Source: Nanobdellati archaeon (GTDB taxonomy: Archaea > B1Sed10-29 > JAGVWA01). From it: a DNA stretch of 63,527 nt. Shown here in pieces: positions 2,839 to 60,269 of this stretch. The notes beneath the pieces were generated by a model. That model was not told the DNA's origin, ran no database searches, and saw nothing but the letters and a program-made list of their open reading frames with translations. Position 1 is the stretch's first letter. Each line of letters begins with the position of its first letter. Made by a program: the position numbers and the translations under genes. The stretch spans positions 1 through 63,527 of the forward strand of contig JAGVWA010000005.1 in assembly GCA_018304505.1 (NCBI GenBank). The letters are read 5' to 3'.

Positions 2839-3189
2839 ATGTGGGATAAAATACCACTAACAGCCAACAGGGCTGTTGAAATGCAGCAAACATCACAAGG
2901 CAGGCTACCCGGCGATGGGTTCAGATACCTTATGCCAGACGGAAGTGTGCTAGAGCAACACGTCGAGGACGCGTCATTGACAAGCTGGGACGAACGGCTC
3001 TTTGTAGCCTCAGGAACATTACACACCGACGAGGGTGCAGCGGCAATAAAAGGAAGAGCGCTACAAGCAGCCAAAGAAGTGCTTGCAATAGAAGAATCAA
3101 CCCTAGCGAATGAACGCGCCGCGATATCAAGCACCGAGGCAAGGATTTCAGAAACGCGTGACATGCTAGCGAAACTAAGCGATCTGTAG
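2839..3189 (+). CDS. Small orphan protein, Met-Trp-start family (MW-3, MWDK subfamily)
   Basis: 116 aa; GGGGGTGA SD; shares MWDKxP, YLxxDGxVL and GTLxTxE with MW-2. Confidence 0.78.
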   Translation: MWDKIPLTANRAVEMQQTSQGRLPGDGFRYLMPDGSVLEQHVEDASLTSWDERLFVASGTLHTDEGAAAIKGRALQAAKEVLAIEESTLANERAAISSTEARISETRDMLAKLSDL

Positions 3190-4378: not shown

Positions 4379-4627
4379 CTAAACAGCGTCATCGCTCTCT
4401 GCTACCTGTGATGCGCGACTGGCCTCAAGGTCATGCAGCCTGCCAAGGTCATCAAGATCGCGCCCAGTAACCTGCACAACGTGATTGTCAGTGACCTGGA
4501 AAGCACAGTCGCCGTCTTTGCTAATGACATACTCAATACCGCCAATTGTGCGGGTCTGGCCCTCCGCAAGCTGCTTCCTGAACACGCGTTCTGCTTCAGT
4601 TCTTTCAAATGTATGCACGGCCCACAT
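4379..4627 (-). CDS. Small orphan protein, Met-Trp-start family (MW-4)
   Basis: 82 aa MWAVHTF...; strong GGAGGTGA SD. Confidence 0.72.
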   Translation of the reverse strand: MWAVHTFERTEAERVFRKQLAEGQTRTIGGIEYVISKDGDCAFQVTDNHVVQVTGRDLDDLGRLHDLEASRASQVAESDDAV

Positions 4628-4658
4628 TCACCACTCACCTCCAATTTCTGCAGATGCA

Positions 4659-4904
4659 TCACTCAACCCACATGGTGTCAAGATTATGGCCATTGATCCT
4701 CTCAAGGTTGTCCCACAATCCATTGAGCCCCCTGATTTGCCTGCGGGCCATGTCCTGTTCCGCGTCAGAACCACCTGCAGCGTCTTTCCTGAGTACTTCC
4801 AAGGTCCTGTTGAACTCCGCACGGGCACCCGGAACATTCCGACCACGATGCAAGTGCCTGATTTTCTCAAGCGACGAAGTCCACGCTTCTGATTGCATCC
4901 ACAT
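4659..4904 (-). CDS. Small orphan protein, Met-Trp-start family (MW-5)
   Basis: 81 aa from internal ATG-TGG (MWMQSEA...), ends in MWVE; co-oriented with MW-4 and MW-6. Confidence 0.62.
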   Translation of the reverse strand: MWMQSEAWTSSLEKIRHLHRGRNVPGARAEFNRTLEVLRKDAAGGSDAEQDMARRQIRGLNGLWDNLERINGHNLDTMWVE

Positions 4905-5015
4905 GCCCAAAATTCTGGCGGGCATTCAATAAATAACTATGCCCGGCAATCCGCGACAACGCACTGTGCGCCCCAACTGCGGCTGTGTAATCGGTATTCA
5001 GAACACTGATAAAAT

Positions 5016-5291
5016 TTACTTATCCCCGTTGAGGATATCAAGCACCTCGACCTTCAAGCGCTCGCCCTCGTCAAATGTCTGCGAGTAATCCATGATGTAC
5101 TGTGCATCATCTAAGACGAGCCTCAGCAAGCCGCGCCTGTCGCTTTCAAACGTTGCACACTGCGACATTTCAAGCCCAATTCTGGCGCTCAGTAATGAAT
5201 CTTTCAAAAAACCGTCATTGCCGGCCCTAAGCCATGCTGTCACCTTCTCGGCGTCATCCAATGCCTTAAACGCGCCATCATAGCTCCACAT
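5016..5291 (-). CDS. Small orphan protein, Met-Trp-start family (MW-6)
   Basis: 91 aa from ATG-TGG (MWSYDGA...); GAGGT SD, CTTTATAT box upstream. Confidence 0.68.
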   Translation of the reverse strand: MWSYDGAFKALDDAEKVTAWLRAGNDGFLKDSLLSARIGLEMSQCATFESDRRGLLRLVLDDAQYIMDYSQTFDEGERLKVEVLDILNGDK

Positions 5292-23969: not shown

Positions 23970-24176
23970 TCACTCAGTTTTATTCCGGAAATCTTCGAAT
24001 TCAAACTCCCCCTCGTCATCTTCATCAATATCTCCAAATTCTTTATCCCACGAATCAATATCCTCTAAGTCTTCAAGGCTAATACCATTGGCGTCAAGCC
24101 AAGTAAGAGAATCGGCGATCTGCTTCACTAACGCGCGCTTTTCTTTAATACTCAATTCCGTTTCATGAGTCCACAT
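23970..24176 (-). CDS. Small highly acidic orphan protein, Met-Trp-start family (MW-8)
   Basis: ATG-TGG at 24176 after GGGGGA; 68 aa with D/E-rich C-terminus. Confidence 0.62.
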   Translation of the reverse strand: MWTHETELSIKEKRALVKQIADSLTWLDANGISLEDLEDIDSWDKEFGDIDEDDEGEFEFEDFRNKTE

Positions 24177-30877: not shown

Positions 30878-31568
30878 CCTCGCGCTCTACCTACCAAAAC
30901 ACAAAGCGCTAGTGATCGGAGACATTCACTTAGGATACGAAGACGCGCTTGCAGCGCAAGGAATAATGCTCCCAAAGACACAATACAAAAGAACCATTGG
31001 AAGAGCTGAACGCGTTTTCAAAACGCTTGGCAATGAAAAAAAACAAGTCGAAGAAATAATTCTCAACGGGGACATAAAGCACGAATTCGGCAGGATCAGT
31101 GAACAGGAATGGCAAGACGCGCTCAACTTCCTGGCTTTCCTTGAAAAGCACTGCAGCAAGCTCACCATTATCAAGGGCAACCACGACAAGATCATAGAAC
31201 CGATAGCAACAAAGCGTGGCCACACTGTTGAAACGCAGCGTGCGCTTGACGATGTGTTGGTGTGCCACGGCGACGTGGTCCCAGTTAATGCGCAAGCGTT
31301 TAAGACAATCGTTATTGGCGACGCGCACCCCGCTGTAACCATTAGTGATGGCATTGCGAGCGAAAAAGAGAAGTGCTTCCTCGTTGGGAAATACGGAAAA
31401 TCAGACTTGATTTGCATGCCCTCATTTAACGTGATGACAGAAGGCACAGACGTTTTAGAAGAGAAATTCCGATCCCCATTTTTGCAGCAAGATCTTGGAG
31501 AATTTGAGGTTTACGTTGCCAGCGAAGAAGAAACGATGCACTTTGGCAAGGTCAAGGGCCTTTTCTGA
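30837..31568 (+). CDS. Metallophosphoesterase (Lhr-associated MPE type)
   Basis: GDIHLG, LNGDIKH, GNHD, HGD, GDAHPA, MPSFN. Confidence 0.9.
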   Translation: METFKLSSKMEIVDLALYLPKHKALVIGDIHLGYEDALAAQGIMLPKTQYKRTIGRAERVFKTLGNEKKQVEEIILNGDIKHEFGRISEQEWQDALNFLAFLEKHCSKLTIIKGNHDKIIEPIATKRGHTVETQRALDDVLVCHGDVVPVNAQAFKTIVIGDAHPAVTISDGIASEKEKCFLVGKYGKSDLICMPSFNVMTEGTDVLEEKFRSPFLQQDLGEFEVYVASEEETMHFGKVKGLF

Positions 31569-31791
31569 CCGGCTTCTTGCGCTGAGCTCTTAGTGCAGCC
31601 TCTGCCCTTAATGCAGCATCTGCCCTTTGCGCGAGCCCCGTTACCACACGCCGTTGAATTGCCGCGACCTTCGCTTTCTTTGCCCGGTCCATGAGTCCCT
31701 GTATGACCCGTTCTGCGGCGGCCTCTTCAGCCCCCGGTTTAGCCCTACGCCATAGCTTCCAGCGTCCCTTTGCAGCAGCTTCTTTTACCAT
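31552..31791 (-). CDS. Small basic Ala/Arg/Lys-rich hypothetical protein
   Basis: 79-aa ORF co-oriented downstream of the MW trio; TTTTTATATT box upstream. Confidence 0.55.
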   Translation of the reverse strand: MVKEAAAKGRWKLWRRAKPGAEEAAAERVIQGLMDRAKKAKVAAIQRRVVTGLAQRADAALRAEAALRAQRKKPVRKGP

Positions 31792-31821
31792 ATTGTATTT
31801 AGGAATCCGGAATATAAAAAC

Positions 31822-32148
31822 TTAGACTTCTTCCAAATTCCTAACGTGCTGCATTGCTCTTTGGGCTTGCTGCATTGAATACCGGAATGATGAAGCTTCA
31901 CGTGCAAAGAACTGCTCAGCTTCCCTAACGCCAACGGCTCTGTGATCTCCAGAGTGCGCAGTTATGGTTCCTGCTCGTCCTTCTGAAAACTGCATGAAAA
32001 CCTTGTCTGGCGTGCTGACGTATTTCACGTACCCGCTAGGGGTTTTGTAGAACACAGACTCGTCAATGTGCTGCCTGCCCATCTCAGTCAATAACTGCAT
32101 GTAATCTTGCCGGCTTTCTTGCCAGCTTGCTTCTTCAATCTGCCACAT
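31822..32148 (-). CDS. Small orphan protein, Met-Trp-start family (MW-9)
   Basis: 108 aa MWQIEEA...; GGAGGTGG SD; start abuts the upstream stop (TGA-ATG). Confidence 0.75.
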   Translation of the reverse strand: MWQIEEASWQESRQDYMQLLTEMGRQHIDESVFYKTPSGYVKYVSTPDKVFMQFSEGRAGTITAHSGDHRAVGVREAEQFFAREASSFRYSMQQAQRAMQHVRNLEEV

Positions 32149-32454
32149 TCAACCACCTCCATGAAAAATAATCTGATCTATAGAAGACTCAAATTCTTTC
32201 TTAGCATTAGCAATTGCCTGCTCGCTACTTTTTATAGTCCTATTAATAGCCTCATTACCAACAATACAGGCTGTCCTCAATTTATCACCATCTTCACCAA
32301 TGGCAACTGTGTATTCTGTTAGACTACTACAGTTCTCCACTATCACATCTTCCCCCATATCAAAAACGCTAGTGTCCAATATTCTTGTCCCAACCATATC
32401 CCTGGTTCTTTCCTGTGCATCCCGATTATATCCCAAATTGAAAATTTCCCACAT
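32149..32454 (-). CDS. Small orphan protein, Met-Trp-start family (MW-10)
   Basis: 101 aa MWEIFNL...; GGGGGCGA SD; 2 nt from the upstream stop. Confidence 0.75.
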   Translation of the reverse strand: MWEIFNLGYNRDAQERTRDMVGTRILDTSVFDMGEDVIVENCSSLTEYTVAIGEDGDKLRTACIVGNEAINRTIKSSEQAIANAKKEFESSIDQIIFHGGG

Positions 32455-32456
32455 TA

Positions 32457-32807
32457 TTATTCGCCCCCTAATTCGGCTAGGGCACGTGATCGCACTTCCA
32501 GCGCATCAGTCTCCCTAATCCGTAAGTCTGCGATTTCTACCCTAAGATTTTCTTTGTATGCTGTTACATCATTCGCTCCTGTAATGAGTATTGTTACCGG
32601 TGTTTCCGACACCCGGCGTGGGTCTATTGTCCTGTAATGGACAGCATGATTGCCATTATTGAAAAACGTTCCCATTCCGTTACCTAGATTGACTCCATCG
32701 CCTTTTTCAACTATCTCACGAACTTGTGGAGGTAGCAATTCGTCATATTTCCCCCCCCTCTCCACAGACCATCTATCTGGTGATACATCATATTGCGGCA
32801 TCCACAT
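32457..32807 (-). CDS. Small orphan protein, Met-Trp-start family (MW-11)
   Basis: 116 aa MWMPQYD...; AGGAGG SD. Confidence 0.75.
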   Translation of the reverse strand: MWMPQYDVSPDRWSVERGGKYDELLPPQVREIVEKGDGVNLGNGMGTFFNNGNHAVHYRTIDPRRVSETPVTILITGANDVTAYKENLRVEIADLRIRETDALEVRSRALAELGGE

Positions 32808-32830
32808 TCCCCATCATCCTCCTTTTACTG

Positions 32831-32866
32831 CATTATAGTAGTGTTTACTACTAAACTATAGTGTTT
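32831..32866. promoter_or_regulatory. Operator-like palindrome and direct repeat in the divergent promoter
   Basis: TAGTAGT-GTTT-ACTACTA (32836-32853), outer CATTATAG/CTATAGTG, TAGTGTTT repeated at 32839 and 32859. Confidence 0.55.
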
Positions 32867-32938
32867 TAACTAATTTAAGATTGCGTTTTAATTTTTTATG
32901 ATATAGTTTTAAAAATGTGGCTTGCGTATCTACAGGTA

Positions 32939-33778
32939 ATGGCACTGAGAGATTCGCAGATACCACAAATCGTGGAGTTCGTAAAGCAGGAACCGTGCAC
33001 AATACAAGACATTTCCAAGCGCATCAAGAAGAGTTGGGTCACCACGGACAGTTACGTTAAGGAAATCGCAGACAGGACAGGCCTTATCGCTGTAAAGACA
33101 TTCCGCCAGGGCACCCGCGGCGCGCTGAAGCTTGTCTACTATGTAAACGTTGAAGCGGTGCTAAGCGACACGCTGAAAGATGACCTGTACAACCAGATCA
33201 AAACCAAAAGACGGAAAAGCGATTTCGACTTCATGGACATCTACCAATTCGTTCAAAAAAATGGAAAGCGGAGTTTCGTGGACCAGCAGGAAGAAAACAG
33301 CGCCCATGTCCGCAAGCAACTTGTTCCATTATTCCGGAAGACAAAACACAACCTGTACTGCTTTTCAGGCAACCTGTCATTCCTCAACGTAAAGGCTGGA
33401 AAAACAAGGGTGCTTGATGTGTTTGAAGAGTTGCTCAAAAGAAAAGTAAGGATACACATTCTCTGCCGCGTCAATATTGCGTCTCTGAACAACATTTCCA
33501 AGTTGAATAGCTTGATGAAGAGATACCCTGACTTGATTGAAATAAAACACGCATATCAGCCCTTACGGGGCTTTGTTGCAGACGATGACATTGCGCGCTT
33601 TACTGACGAGGAGCAACTGAAGGACTACAAGCCTGACGAATTAAACAGGAACACGCGCATCATTTACGAAATCACTGACATGGAGTGGGTTTCATGGCTG
33701 CAGAAAGTGTTCTGGAACCTCTACAGGGGATCGATGGACTACACGCAAAGGTTAAAAGAACTTGAGGGTATAATGTAA
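32939..33778 (+). CDS. Transcriptional regulator, winged HTH plus TrmB-like effector domain
   Basis: N-terminal HTH (CTIQDISKRIKKSWVTT); C-terminal YCFSGNLSFL...KVRIHIL...RGFVADD pattern. Confidence 0.65.
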   Translation: MALRDSQIPQIVEFVKQEPCTIQDISKRIKKSWVTTDSYVKEIADRTGLIAVKTFRQGTRGALKLVYYVNVEAVLSDTLKDDLYNQIKTKRRKSDFDFMDIYQFVQKNGKRSFVDQQEENSAHVRKQLVPLFRKTKHNLYCFSGNLSFLNVKAGKTRVLDVFEELLKRKVRIHILCRVNIASLNNISKLNSLMKRYPDLIEIKHAYQPLRGFVADDDIARFTDEEQLKDYKPDELNRNTRIIYEITDMEWVSWLQKVFWNLYRGSMDYTQRLKELEGIM

Positions 33779-33781
33779 ACC

Positions 33782-34249
33782 ATGTATCCCAAAGTTGGGG
33801 GTAAGGCGCCAGAATTTACATTGAAAAACCAAGACCACAAACCCGCGTTTTTGAAGGACTTTGCCGGAAAATGGCTCGTGCTCTACTTCTATCCAAAGGA
33901 CAACACTAGCGGCTGCACAGCCGAGGCGATTGATTTCACCAATGAGCTGACGAAAATCAATAGCATTGGAGCCAATGTACTTGGGGTCTCCCCAGATTCA
34001 GAGGATTCGCACTGCAAGTTCAGGGACAGGCACAGTCTTAAAGTGACGCTGCTTAGCGATCCTGACAAAACAGTTCTGGAAAAGTACGGCGTGTGGCAAG
34101 AGAAATCAATGTACGGCAGGAAATACATGGGCGTCGTCAGGACAACGTTTCTCATTGATCCGCAGGGCAAAGTTGCTCATGTTTGGGAAAAGGTCAAGGT
34201 TCCGGGGCATGTGCAGGACGTAATTGACACGCTAGCCAAACTAAAGTAA
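33782..34249 (+). CDS. bcp: Peroxiredoxin Bcp/PrxQ
   Basis: LYFYPKDNTSGCTAEA, GVVRTTFLID. Confidence 0.95.
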   Translation: MYPKVGGKAPEFTLKNQDHKPAFLKDFAGKWLVLYFYPKDNTSGCTAEAIDFTNELTKINSIGANVLGVSPDSEDSHCKFRDRHSLKVTLLSDPDKTVLEKYGVWQEKSMYGRKYMGVVRTTFLIDPQGKVAHVWEKVKVPGHVQDVIDTLAKLK

Positions 34250-34294
34250 ACCGACCCTGGTTTAAACTCGCGACGGTTGCAAAATCGATATATA
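34248..34294 (+). promoter_or_regulatory. Second copy of the extended promoter element
   Basis: AAACC-gaccc-TGGTTTAAAC-N8-GTTGCAAAATCGATA-TATA. Confidence 0.6.
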
Positions 34295-59023: not shown

Positions 59024-59311
59024 TCAGATTTCGTCAGGATCAACGAAATCGTCATCGAGATTTTTGGCTGCGCATTCAAAATCATGGCGCTGCAATCCAG
59101 CGTCGTCAATTCTTCCCGCGAGATAATGCACTAGCCCGTCTCTTCTAACTTCTCTTGCCCTGCCGATCATTGATTCCCTGCGGTCGATTTCCTTGTCAAT
59201 GTTATCCATCGCGGCACTGAGTAGTTTCCTTGCCAATTCCTGGTGGCCTGTTTCGGACAGTAGTTCTGCGGCCCCCATCACTGAATCTGCACAATCGCTG
59301 TTCATCCACAT
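59024..59311 (-). CDS. Small orphan protein, Met-Trp-start family (MW-12)
   Basis: 95 aa MWMNSDC...; GGAGGT SD; similar N-terminal helices to MW-13. Confidence 0.75.
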   Translation of the reverse strand: MWMNSDCADSVMGAAELLSETGHQELARKLLSAAMDNIDKEIDRRESMIGRAREVRRDGLVHYLAGRIDDAGLQRHDFECAAKNLDDDFVDPDEI

Positions 59312-59327
59312 AACAAAACCTCCAAAG

Positions 59328-59582
59328 TTACTTTTTTAATTGCTGAGCAAGTTCGTTTGACTGTGCAGCCAACTGCTCCTGCTGTTGCCAGCATTCTCCT
59401 GCTTTTGCCATGTCTCCCATGGCTTGTGCCAGTGTCTCATCTGTTATCAGGAGCGAGCGCTCTTCAACTATTTGCTCCAGGCCGCCCCAGAGTAATTCAT
59501 GCGCTTCGCTTTTTCCCCCAACTTTCCTGAGTTGTGCTGCTGTTTCTATTATCGCGTCTTTAAAATCATCAGTTATCCACAT
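59328..59582 (-). CDS. Small orphan protein, Met-Trp-start family (MW-13)
   Basis: 84 aa from ATG-TGG at 59582 after GGGGGATG. Confidence 0.72.
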   Translation of the reverse strand: MWITDDFKDAIIETAAQLRKVGGKSEAHELLWGGLEQIVEERSLLITDETLAQAMGDMAKAGECWQQQEQLAAQSNELAQQLKK

Positions 59583-59662
59583 GCGTTCATCCCCCATATG
59601 TATTGTTGCCATAACGTTTGGGCAATGAAGTATAAAAAACATCTGTATGCACCTTGGGTTGC

Positions 59663-60064
59663 CTATTCATCCCAGCTTACCGTGCCTGTTTTTGGTTTGG
59701 TTGGGTCTGTAGATGCGGTTGGGTGTGCCACGGGAATGGCTGGTTTTGAGGCCTCCCTTGTAGGCGCCTCAGGCACATGCTCCTCTGCAAGTGTTTTCGG
59801 TAATGTGTCAAGGTCCTCGAGCTCCTTGATGGCGAGTTTACCCAGGTTACGGAAGCGCTGTCTTTTGCTGTTCAATACTGCACCTTCGAGAAATCGCGAG
59901 GCTCCATAGACGTCAATTGTTGCTGTGTGCGCTACACCACGCTCTTGCTCAACTCCACCGAGGTGGTTCCAGGCCTGCTGCAGGTTTTGCCTTGCAACTG
60001 GCTCTACAAGCAGCATGGCACCCATTTTTCTCATCGCCACCTTGGCTTCCTCAACGCTCCACAT
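59663..60064 (-). CDS. Small orphan protein, Met-Trp-start family (MW-14)
   Basis: 133 aa MWSVEEA...; Pro/Thr-rich tail ending SWDE. Confidence 0.7.
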   Translation of the reverse strand: MWSVEEAKVAMRKMGAMLLVEPVARQNLQQAWNHLGGVEQERGVAHTATIDVYGASRFLEGAVLNSKRQRFRNLGKLAIKELEDLDTLPKTLAEEHVPEAPTREASKPAIPVAHPTASTDPTKPKTGTVSWDE

Positions 60065-60269
60065 ATTCATCAATGTTCCACATGTTCTTATCACACCATT
60101 ATGCCACTTCTATTTTCCGCGTCCTGCGCTCACACACGAACATATTTGCATTTTGGATGTATTTAAAGCTTCACACGAATTCACCAAGCCTGGTTTGAAC
60201 TGGTTTGAACAAGTTGCAACCAGCTAACGTTGCAAAATTGACTTAAATGCACTTCGCTATAACTATAAC

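Follow-up and report, generated by a model that had tools for sequence, protein, structure and literature searches.

A TrmBL2-like factor of Woesearchaeota with predicted phased boxes in its own promoter, beside an orphan operon of Met-Trp proteins

The 63,527-nucleotide contig JAGVWA010000005.1 of a Nanobdellati archaeon (assembly GCA_018304505.1), whose whole length is referred to below as the window, contains a putative transcription regulator gene (32939-33778, plus strand) that diverges from three small genes on the minus strand, MW-9, MW-10 and MW-11 (32807-31822), the products of which all begin with Met-Trp (MW). A reading of this locus made from the sequence alone had described a ligand-responsive, TrmB-like switch of the MW genes acting on a palindrome in the divergent gap. 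The present analysis favours, with a probability of roughly 0.6, a different arrangement: the regulator would be a TrmBL2-like factor of the Woesearchaeota that controls its own expression through phased boxes, and the MW trio would be an orphan operon lodged in the adjoining slot and coupled to the regulator by position. The window is assigned to a groundwater member of the Woesearchaeota (DPANN). Its gene content is archaeal, with translation factors, a type IV pilus/archaellum-like cluster and an Lhr helicase, and the locus is also found, at 99.7-100% identity, in several groundwater and soil metagenome assemblies; a search for RNA runs containing it found none.

The regulator is 279 amino acids long and its start is placed at 32939 because its homologs have a similar length (~279 residues) and begin with M-[AV]-L. 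A longer open reading frame (ORF) called by the pipeline from 32915 (287 residues, with an “MW” start) was rejected: it has no Shine-Dalgarno (SD) sequence, overlaps a TATA-like run and exceeds the homologs in length. With the homolog-backed start, the divergent gap measures 131 nt (32808-32938), as had been proposed. The family counts 439 homologs of ~279 residues, nearly all from metagenome-assembled genomes (MAGs) of Woesearchaeota and Nanoarchaeota, and 353 relatives are found in GTDB species genomes. Its annotation is scarce: one member is labelled “cardiolipin synthase family protein” by NCBI, and no literature on the family in DPANN archaea was found. The window protein and its relatives give nothing significant against Pfam and NCBIfam, with TrmB, PLDc_2, Lrs14, DUF7342 and DUF7931 all staying sub-threshold; hmmscan of the window protein returns no TrmB match at E ≤ 1, and only one of 29 family members matches PF01978 (E 0.024, below the cut-off), PLDc_2 being hit in 4 of the 29 (best E 0.0013). 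Alignment of the family profile with a PF01978 protein from locus L001 by hhalign yields a probability of 0.3%. Membership in the TrmB, phospholipase D (PLD) or Lrs14 families was thus rejected at the level of sequence profiles.

The predicted structure tells more. An AlphaFold model calculated with 29 homologs (predicted local distance difference test, pLDDT, 88.8) comprises a winged helix-turn-helix (residues 1-68), a helix (71-89) and a PLD-like α/β domain (110-278), and ends at residue 279, two helices after the PLD-like domain. In a Foldseek search of the PDB, seven TrmBL2 chains rank first (5bpd/5bpi/5bqt/5box), aligned over their full length (269-294 columns, E 2e-10 to 6e-9, top probability 1.00), followed by single-domain proteins of the PLD fold, Nuc, FAM83, NucT and Zucchini. 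The model therefore places in one chain the winged helix-turn-helix, the helix and the PLD-like C-terminal domain that define TrmB proteins structurally. The label “TrmB-like” given by the sequence-only reading thus holds for the predicted fold, with TrmBL2 matched over its full length at E 2e-10, and fails for the sequence profile. The fold of residues 110-278 is common to PLD-superfamily proteins (Nuc, NucT, Zucchini and the DUF1669 domain of FAM83; E 2e-7 for Nuc to 1e-5, template modelling score, TM, ~0.6 when normalised to the target). Unlike the PLD enzymes, which carry the HxK(x)4D catalytic (HKD) motif, the regulator alignment shows H204-x-[YF]-Q-P-L-R-G, with neither the Lys at +2 nor the Asp at +7, so that the C-terminal domain is probably non-catalytic; by analogy with TrmB proteins, it is probably a dimerisation or effector domain. 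Its conserved residues are the invariant F142, G144, S147, P208-L209-R210, D215, W250 and W253, together with H204 in at least 90% of the sequences.

Within the TrmB superfamily, TrmBL2 is a short member, a chromatin protein and global repressor without an extra C-terminal sugar-binding domain, whereas TrmB and TrmBL1 carry such a domain, which binds the sugar effector (PMC4877046). The regulator follows the same full-length order as TrmBL2 of Pyrococcus furiosus (PF0496) and Thermococcus kodakarensis (TK0471), namely an extended winged helix, a helix and a PLD-like C-terminal domain; it has a comparable size (279 against ~260 residues) and likewise lacks the extra domain. The differences are also clear: sequence identity is 13-14%, neither PF01978 nor PF11495 matches significantly, the TM-score of only 0.40 indicates that the domains are oriented differently, and the host is a mesophilic DPANN archaeon instead of a member of the Thermococcales. 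With the sugar-responsive TrmB and TrmBL1 (Tgr) of the Thermococcales, the regulator shares the winged helix, the PLD-like effector scaffold and an operator, here predicted, near the transcription factor B recognition element (BRE) and the TATA box; their additional sugar-binding domain is absent from its model. Given this short, TrmBL2-type architecture, the claim that MW expression is ligand-controlled is an unsupported extrapolation, for which nothing speaks beyond the conserved C-terminal domain.

The evidence for self-regulation comes from the DNA preceding the regulator homologs. Eighty loci with such homologs were taken from GTDB species genomes and the 130 nt upstream of each were inspected, 71 loci being used in the non-redundant counts. 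In the clade of the window protein, the upstream regions hold an 11-bp box, aTAGTGTTTTA, and a position weight matrix (PWM) built from 44 boxes of the relatives indicates that the flanking A(-1) and A(+7) are conserved too. The core AGTGTTT[TAC]A occurs 43 times in the 5.07 kb preceding the regulators of the S-W-[VIL]-T type, i.e. 8.5/kb, compared with 0.039/kb in the remaining 233 kb of these loci, an enrichment of ~220-fold in the 130 nt that precede the regulator gene. A sister clade with N-W-R-T at the corresponding residues has boxes of another type, GTGTTGTA, at 6.5/kb upstream of the gene and 0.033/kb elsewhere; there, pairs are direct and occasionally inverted, the inverted pairs being confined to a few loci of the N-W-R clade. 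Matches of one clade to the box of the other number 0 and 1. Each box type is kept across 40-60% protein divergence in intergenic DNA that is otherwise unalignable. The spacing is also conserved: of 16 pairs of strong boxes, 15 have a distance of 43-44 bp between the two copies, which sit near positions -90 and -47 relative to the ATG, with a weaker TTAGTTTTA midway between them and a TATA-like TTTAAATA or TTTATATA (consensus GAAAnnTTTAnATA) ~25-35 nt before the ATG. To note, two loci (L073 and L072) possess, further upstream, additional pairs of boxes spaced by 44 bp, a hint that small regulons may exist. In a metagenome-wide scan for the box pair, the matches listed were tandem repeats and chance matches, with a regulator in 0 of 80 loci, so that the scan is uninformative for the regulon.

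The box type follows the residues expected to read it. Residues 32-34, S-W-V in the window protein, open the recognition helix (helix 3, residues 33-47 in the model). Where GTGTTT[TAC] boxes are the sole type (30 loci), the encoded protein always has S32-W-[VIL]34; where GT(G)TTGT(A) boxes are the sole type (24 loci), it always has N32-W-R34. Box and helix thus agree in 54 of the 54 loci that harbor a single box type. As expected for an autoregulated factor, a predicted cognate site is kept in the promoter of the gene and co-varies with the DNA-reading residues. This leads to the conclusion that the family would bind boxes in its own promoter, binding being deduced here from sequence comparison. 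The boxes, which are AT-rich and adjoin TATA-like runs, could instead serve another factor or the basal transcription machinery as promoter or architectural elements, in which case their position beside the regulator gene would reveal nothing on what the regulator binds; this is quite improbable, since the box type switches with the start of the recognition helix encoded by the adjacent gene, and since the ~200-fold enrichment at the regulator gene compares with ~0.04/kb in flanks that hold many other promoters. Several genomes encode two regulator paralogs, among them L018/L049, L008/L063, L033/L055 and L028/L069: three of these four pairs associate a protein of S-W-V/L type with one of N-W-R type, while L018/L049 associates S-W-V with S-W-L.

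In the window, the gap contains boxes of this family, as well as both elements described previously, i.e. the palindrome TAGTAGT-GTTT-ACTACTA (32836-32853) and a direct repeat of TAGTGTTT (32839-32846 and 32859-32866). Four boxes can be listed from the distal to the proximal side of the regulator start. Box 1, GTAGTGTTTAC (32838-32848, 9.9 bits with the PWM), is formed by the left arm and the spacer of the palindrome. Box 2, ATAGTGTTTTA (32858-32868, plus strand), is a perfect match to the family consensus and, with 20.75 bits, the top PWM site of the whole 63.5-kb window, the runner-up reaching 15.0 bits. Box 3, ATTGCGTTTTA (32880-32890, plus strand, 9.8 bits), is degenerate and located 22 nt from the consensus box; a variant of its type, GCGTTTTA, also precedes the regulator homolog in L033. 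Box 4, ATAGTTTTA (32903-32911, plus strand), is weak, resembles the weak middle box of the relatives and overlaps a TATA-like run. The four starts (32838, 32858, 32880 and 32903) are thus separated by 20, 22 and 23 nt. The TATA-like TTTTAAAAAT (32907-32916, plus strand) is located 23-32 nt before the ATG at 32939, the same geometry as that of the TATA-like runs of the homologs, which suggests that the regulator mRNA is leaderless or has a short leader.

The gap is therefore predicted to hold an operator of the regulator, as had been anticipated, in the form of these family boxes. In the favoured mechanism, the regulator would recognise the 11-bp aTAGTGTTTTA. Just upstream of the TATA of its gene, several copies of this box point the same way at intervals of about two helical turns, and the regulator, probably oligomeric, would bind these phased copies along a single face of the double helix. 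TrmBL2 itself is a tetramer, each spanning about two turns of DNA (PMC4877046). Since the boxes are upstream of the TATA-like run of the regulator gene and overlap it, the regulator would autoregulate.

The palindrome itself is a poor candidate for the operator. It occurs once in the window, and shuffling the gap yields an inverted repeat with 7-bp arms in 7% of cases; across the whole window, 22 repeats of this kind are present for 18.5 expected. The upstream regions of the closest relatives lack the palindrome, and its right arm is not conserved there: in the closest one (L091, 61% identity), TAGTGTAGTGTTTTA and CAGTGTTTTA are found 42 bp apart, without the palindrome. The palindrome is the outermost box prolonged by a non-conserved complementary extension, and the conserved element of the gap is the direct repeat. 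The operators of TrmB and TrmBL1 are palindromic (TGM TATCAC-N5-GTGATA), whereas the conserved sites of the regulator are directly repeated, asymmetric boxes at distances of 21 and 43-44 bp, and thus depart from the TrmB type. Neither the palindrome nor the boxes recur in the window above chance frequency, and scans with the motif and the PWM return no copy of the operator beside any of the nine other MW ORFs; the palindrome, which the sequence-only reading had proposed to look for near other MW genes, has no copy there.

The genes that adjoin the regulator homologs provide an independent view of its possible targets. Once redundancy is removed, the homologs have 71 upstream neighbours, which group into 46 clusters. 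Radical-SAM enzymes, P-loop kinases, a reverse transcriptase and many singletons are among them, but no gene that is trio-like or credibly starts with MW. Of the 71, 63 are divergent, usually at ~100-117 bp. The downstream neighbours are as diverse (63 clusters among 67), and no partner gene is conserved on either side. As the flanking genes are unrelated from one relative to the next, the promoter module appears to belong to the regulator gene, with interchangeable neighbours. The conserved linkage with homologs of a target that would characterise a dedicated regulator is not observed, and a conserved partnership with the trio is impossible, as the trio has no homologs. In two loci, a reverse-transcriptase gene (RVT_1) diverges from the regulator homolog or lies near it, at 95-1093 of L091 (the closest relative) and at 1466-2284 of L004. 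In the window, a peroxiredoxin gene (AhpC-TSA, E 8e-41; 33782-34249, plus strand) starts 3 nt past the regulator stop and may be co-transcribed with it; this pairing is not conserved in the relatives.

These data bear directly on the proposal that the MW genes have a dedicated, ligand-sensing regulator of TrmB type, which recognises the palindrome and turns the MW system on or off upon sensing a small molecule or contact with the host. The divergent layout, the 131-bp gap, the existing palindrome and the TrmB-superfamily fold speak for it, and the conserved C-terminal residues could line a pocket. However, the palindrome is neither conserved nor beyond chance, the operator tracks the regulator gene and not the MW genes, no site accompanies the nine other MW ORFs, the trio lacks homologs and the extra C-terminal sugar-binding domain is missing, which together leave this proposal improbable. 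The tie between regulator and MW genes is contradicted by the relatives, in which 0 of 71 upstream neighbours are MW-like, and the use of the regulator as a general handle on the MW system loses its basis with the lack of operators at the other MW genes of the window and of linkage in the relatives.

The trio is nevertheless well organized. MW-9 (32457-32807, minus strand, 116 residues, MWMPQYD...), MW-10 (32149-32454, minus strand, 101 residues) and MW-11 (31822-32148, minus strand, 108 residues) all open with ATG-TGG and are separated by 2 and 0 nt, as previously noted and as read directly from the sequence, the ATG of MW-11 abutting the stop of MW-10 (TGA-ATG). The SD of MW-9 is GGAGGA (32817-32822), 9 nt before the start. 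That of MW-10, GGGGGCG (within 32455-32475), is made of the Gly-Gly-Glu codons closing MW-9 (...LGGE*), and that of MW-11, GGAGGTGG (within 32149-32170), of the Gly-Gly-Gly codons closing MW-10 (...HGGG*). SD sequences built from the Gly codons that end the preceding genes point to a designed, coupled operon. One strand, stop-start distances of 2 and 0 nt and SD sequences inside the preceding ORFs are the marks of translational coupling, and this SD placement is good evidence that the trio forms a single translationally coupled operon. Known prokaryotic operons of coupled small genes likewise display stop-start distances of 0-2 nt, with the next SD within the end of the previous gene; unlike them, the trio encodes products without a detectable family, all of which begin with Met-Trp, as do nine other ORFs of the window. 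Directly past the MW-11 stop, the T-run GTTTTTATATTC (31810-31821, minus-strand reading) is probably an oligo-T terminator of the trio; also read as GTTTTTAT, it could alternatively be a TATA-like element for the next small ORF (31791-31552).

Searches for relatives of the three proteins were fruitless. In a word-indexed search of 5.8e9 proteins, the sole match of MW-9 is a 98%-identical variant, P0121, which has no DNA record, and MW-10 finds nothing beyond itself. A full HMMER search of MW-11 against 1.84e9 representatives retrieved, besides MW-11, two marginal repeat proteins (E 1e-4): its residues 57-87 align with the GRSGTVTAQSGDY repeats, with a repeated GRSGTVTAQSGDYTTTQVTEG unit, of P0124 (1863 residues) and P0125 (690 residues), matches judged probably spurious. 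The Pfam, NCBIfam, PHROG (phage) and PADLOC (defence) libraries gave zero matches for the trio. Codon scores are 0.00 for MW-9, -0.09 for MW-10 and 0.10 bits/codon for MW-11, at or below the minimum of 0.10 reached by the 33 long genes of the window (mean 0.28 ± 0.07 bits/codon), and MW-10 has a GC content of 0.386, with 0.31 at third codon positions (GC3) against a GC3 of 0.54 for long genes. Concerning structure, the Chou-Fasman profile assigns a C-terminal helix of ~30 residues to each protein, with helical hydrophobic moments of 0.40 in MW-10, 0.49 in MW-11 and 0.14 in MW-9; a single-sequence AlphaFold model of MW-9 was unusable (pLDDT 40). The β-rich N-terminal half and C-terminal amphipathic helix attributed earlier to all three proteins are thus weakly backed: the helix is predicted in each, and its amphipathic character in MW-10 and MW-11 but not in MW-9.

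The lack of homologs, the low codon scores and the low-confidence model of MW-9 could mean that the MW ORFs are not genes, or that the palindrome is an RNA hairpin in their leader. This is very improbable: the annotated frame ranks first of six for each of the three ORFs in codon scoring, the SD sequences are strong and well placed, the stops and starts are coupled, and the ORFs are intact in six other, independent assemblies, although these, being 99.7-100% identical, are uninformative for strain comparison (ratio of non-synonymous to synonymous changes, dN/dS). Furthermore, an SD precedes 10 of the 26 minus-strand ATGTGG sites of the window, against 6% of all ATGs, and the hairpin (-8.5 kcal/mol, z +0.47) is no improvement over shuffled sequence. 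The trio members are real-looking, lineage-specific orphan genes of atypical composition, as judged from their sequences.

The trio belongs to a larger set. Twelve small ORFs of the window (68-133 residues) that are preceded by an SD begin with Met-Trp; they are located at 51-299, 2839-3189, 4379-5291, 23970-24176, 31822-32807 and 59024-60064, and three groups among them are tandem trios, all on the minus strand (5291-4379, 32807-31822 and 60064-59024). After removal of Met-Trp, the 12 proteins display no mutual similarity (mean z 0.11, z > 3 in 1 of 66 pairs). Small Met-Trp ORFs are in excess in this genome; of 572 ORFs in 80 further Woesearchaeota loci, a single one starts with MW.

How could the regulator affect its neighbours? 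The trio operon would fill the slot beside the promoter module, where other Woesearchaeota hold unrelated genes, and its promoter would lie within the same 131 bp. A candidate TATA for the trio, CTTAAATTAG (minus-strand reading, 32870-32879), has a BRE-like GCAAT just upstream and is a tentative element, read by comparison with the common ttGCAAAAtcgATAAATA promoters of the window. If CTTAAATTAG is the TATA box, the consensus box and the palindrome fall between it and the SD of MW-9. For TrmBL1/Tgr, the position of the site relative to the TATA box sets repression or activation, and a site between the TATA box and the SD is a repressing position for archaeal regulators, TrmBL1/Tgr and others. 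The box-bound regulator would most likely limit trio transcription too, the sign of the effect being predicted from this geometry. As the boxes fill nearly all of the 131-bp gap, the only promoter space available, local co-regulation is plausible, and the regulator may plausibly repress the trio. The coupling between regulator and trio stems from position, and not from a dedicated MW regulon.

A related possibility is that the regulator is mainly a chromatin or nucleoid protein, which would nucleate at the phased boxes, spread, and silence adjacent or foreign-looking genes such as the trio. Its best structural match is the chromatin protein TrmBL2, a filament-forming global repressor (PMC4877046); the box period of ~21 bp would suit oligomers packed side by side, codon usage in the trio is atypical and its GC content low, and the regulator family is nearly ubiquitous in the lineage. 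On balance this is rather unlikely, as the sharp, clade-specific 11-bp box argues for specific recognition and ordinary housekeeping genes are found among the neighbours. A bolder extension, to be taken as a long shot, pictures a DPANN counterpart of TrmBL2 that nucleates on the boxes of its own promoter and spreads, silencing the adjoining foreign-looking genes (the MW trio here, reverse transcriptases and unrelated genes elsewhere) until it is titrated or modified, with the trio belonging to a set of 12 or more small Met-Trp proteins, specific to this genome, whose common function would be linked to their N-terminus.

Several observations weigh against the self-regulating, TrmBL2-like factor favoured here. 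The divide between S-W-V and N-W-R proteins is essentially one phylogenetic split, so that the co-variation of box and helix amounts to one event. The strict box is absent in 10 of 39 and 12 of 32 loci, though many of these show degenerate variants. The pattern in the window is itself unusual, with strict boxes 20 bp apart instead of 43-44 bp and weak promoter-proximal boxes. A secondary trend, in which helix residue Asp37 changes to Glu along with TTTTA to TTTCA (9 of 23 against 10 of 79 boxes), is suggestive only. DNA binding by TrmBL2 is largely non-specific, the protein coating DNA (PMC4877046), whereas the regulator has a defined, conserved direct-repeat site, as predicted, in its own promoter. 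Finally, the promoter and TATA box of the trio are guessed, which makes both an effect on the trio and its sign hypothetical.

Two other elements of the window may be mentioned. An Ala/Arg-rich ORF of 79 residues (31552-31791, minus strand; net charge +15, GC 0.58) lies 30 nt downstream of the trio; it is called a gene by the pipelines, has no family matches, displays TTTTTATATT 20-30 nt before its ATG in a leaderless-type geometry and shares 17 nt with the 3' end of a convergent metallophosphoesterase gene. Another promoter module, TGGTTT(A/G)AAC-N8-GTTGCAAAAT with a TATA-like run behind it, recurs at 2136-2163, 34258-34285 and 60191-60238. It precedes by ~35-40 nt three plus-strand genes that are unrelated to one another (starting at 2198, 34317 and 60270), weaker copies occur at 1734 and at 2763, and a different regulator probably acts on this module.

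For the MW proteins, the outcome is mostly negative, the regulator reporting at best on one trio. The novelty lies in the regulator: it represents an unannotated, lineage-wide family of factors with a defined box and a natural specificity switch. The Woesearchaeota and other DPANN archaea are uncultured and, to our knowledge, no transcription factor has been characterised among them. The family offers a testable protein-DNA pair, with an 11-bp box, spacings of ~21 and 43-44 bp, and S32/V34 paired with TTTTA against N32/R34 with TTGTA. The box and its specificity switch could anchor regulon prediction in hundreds of MAGs.

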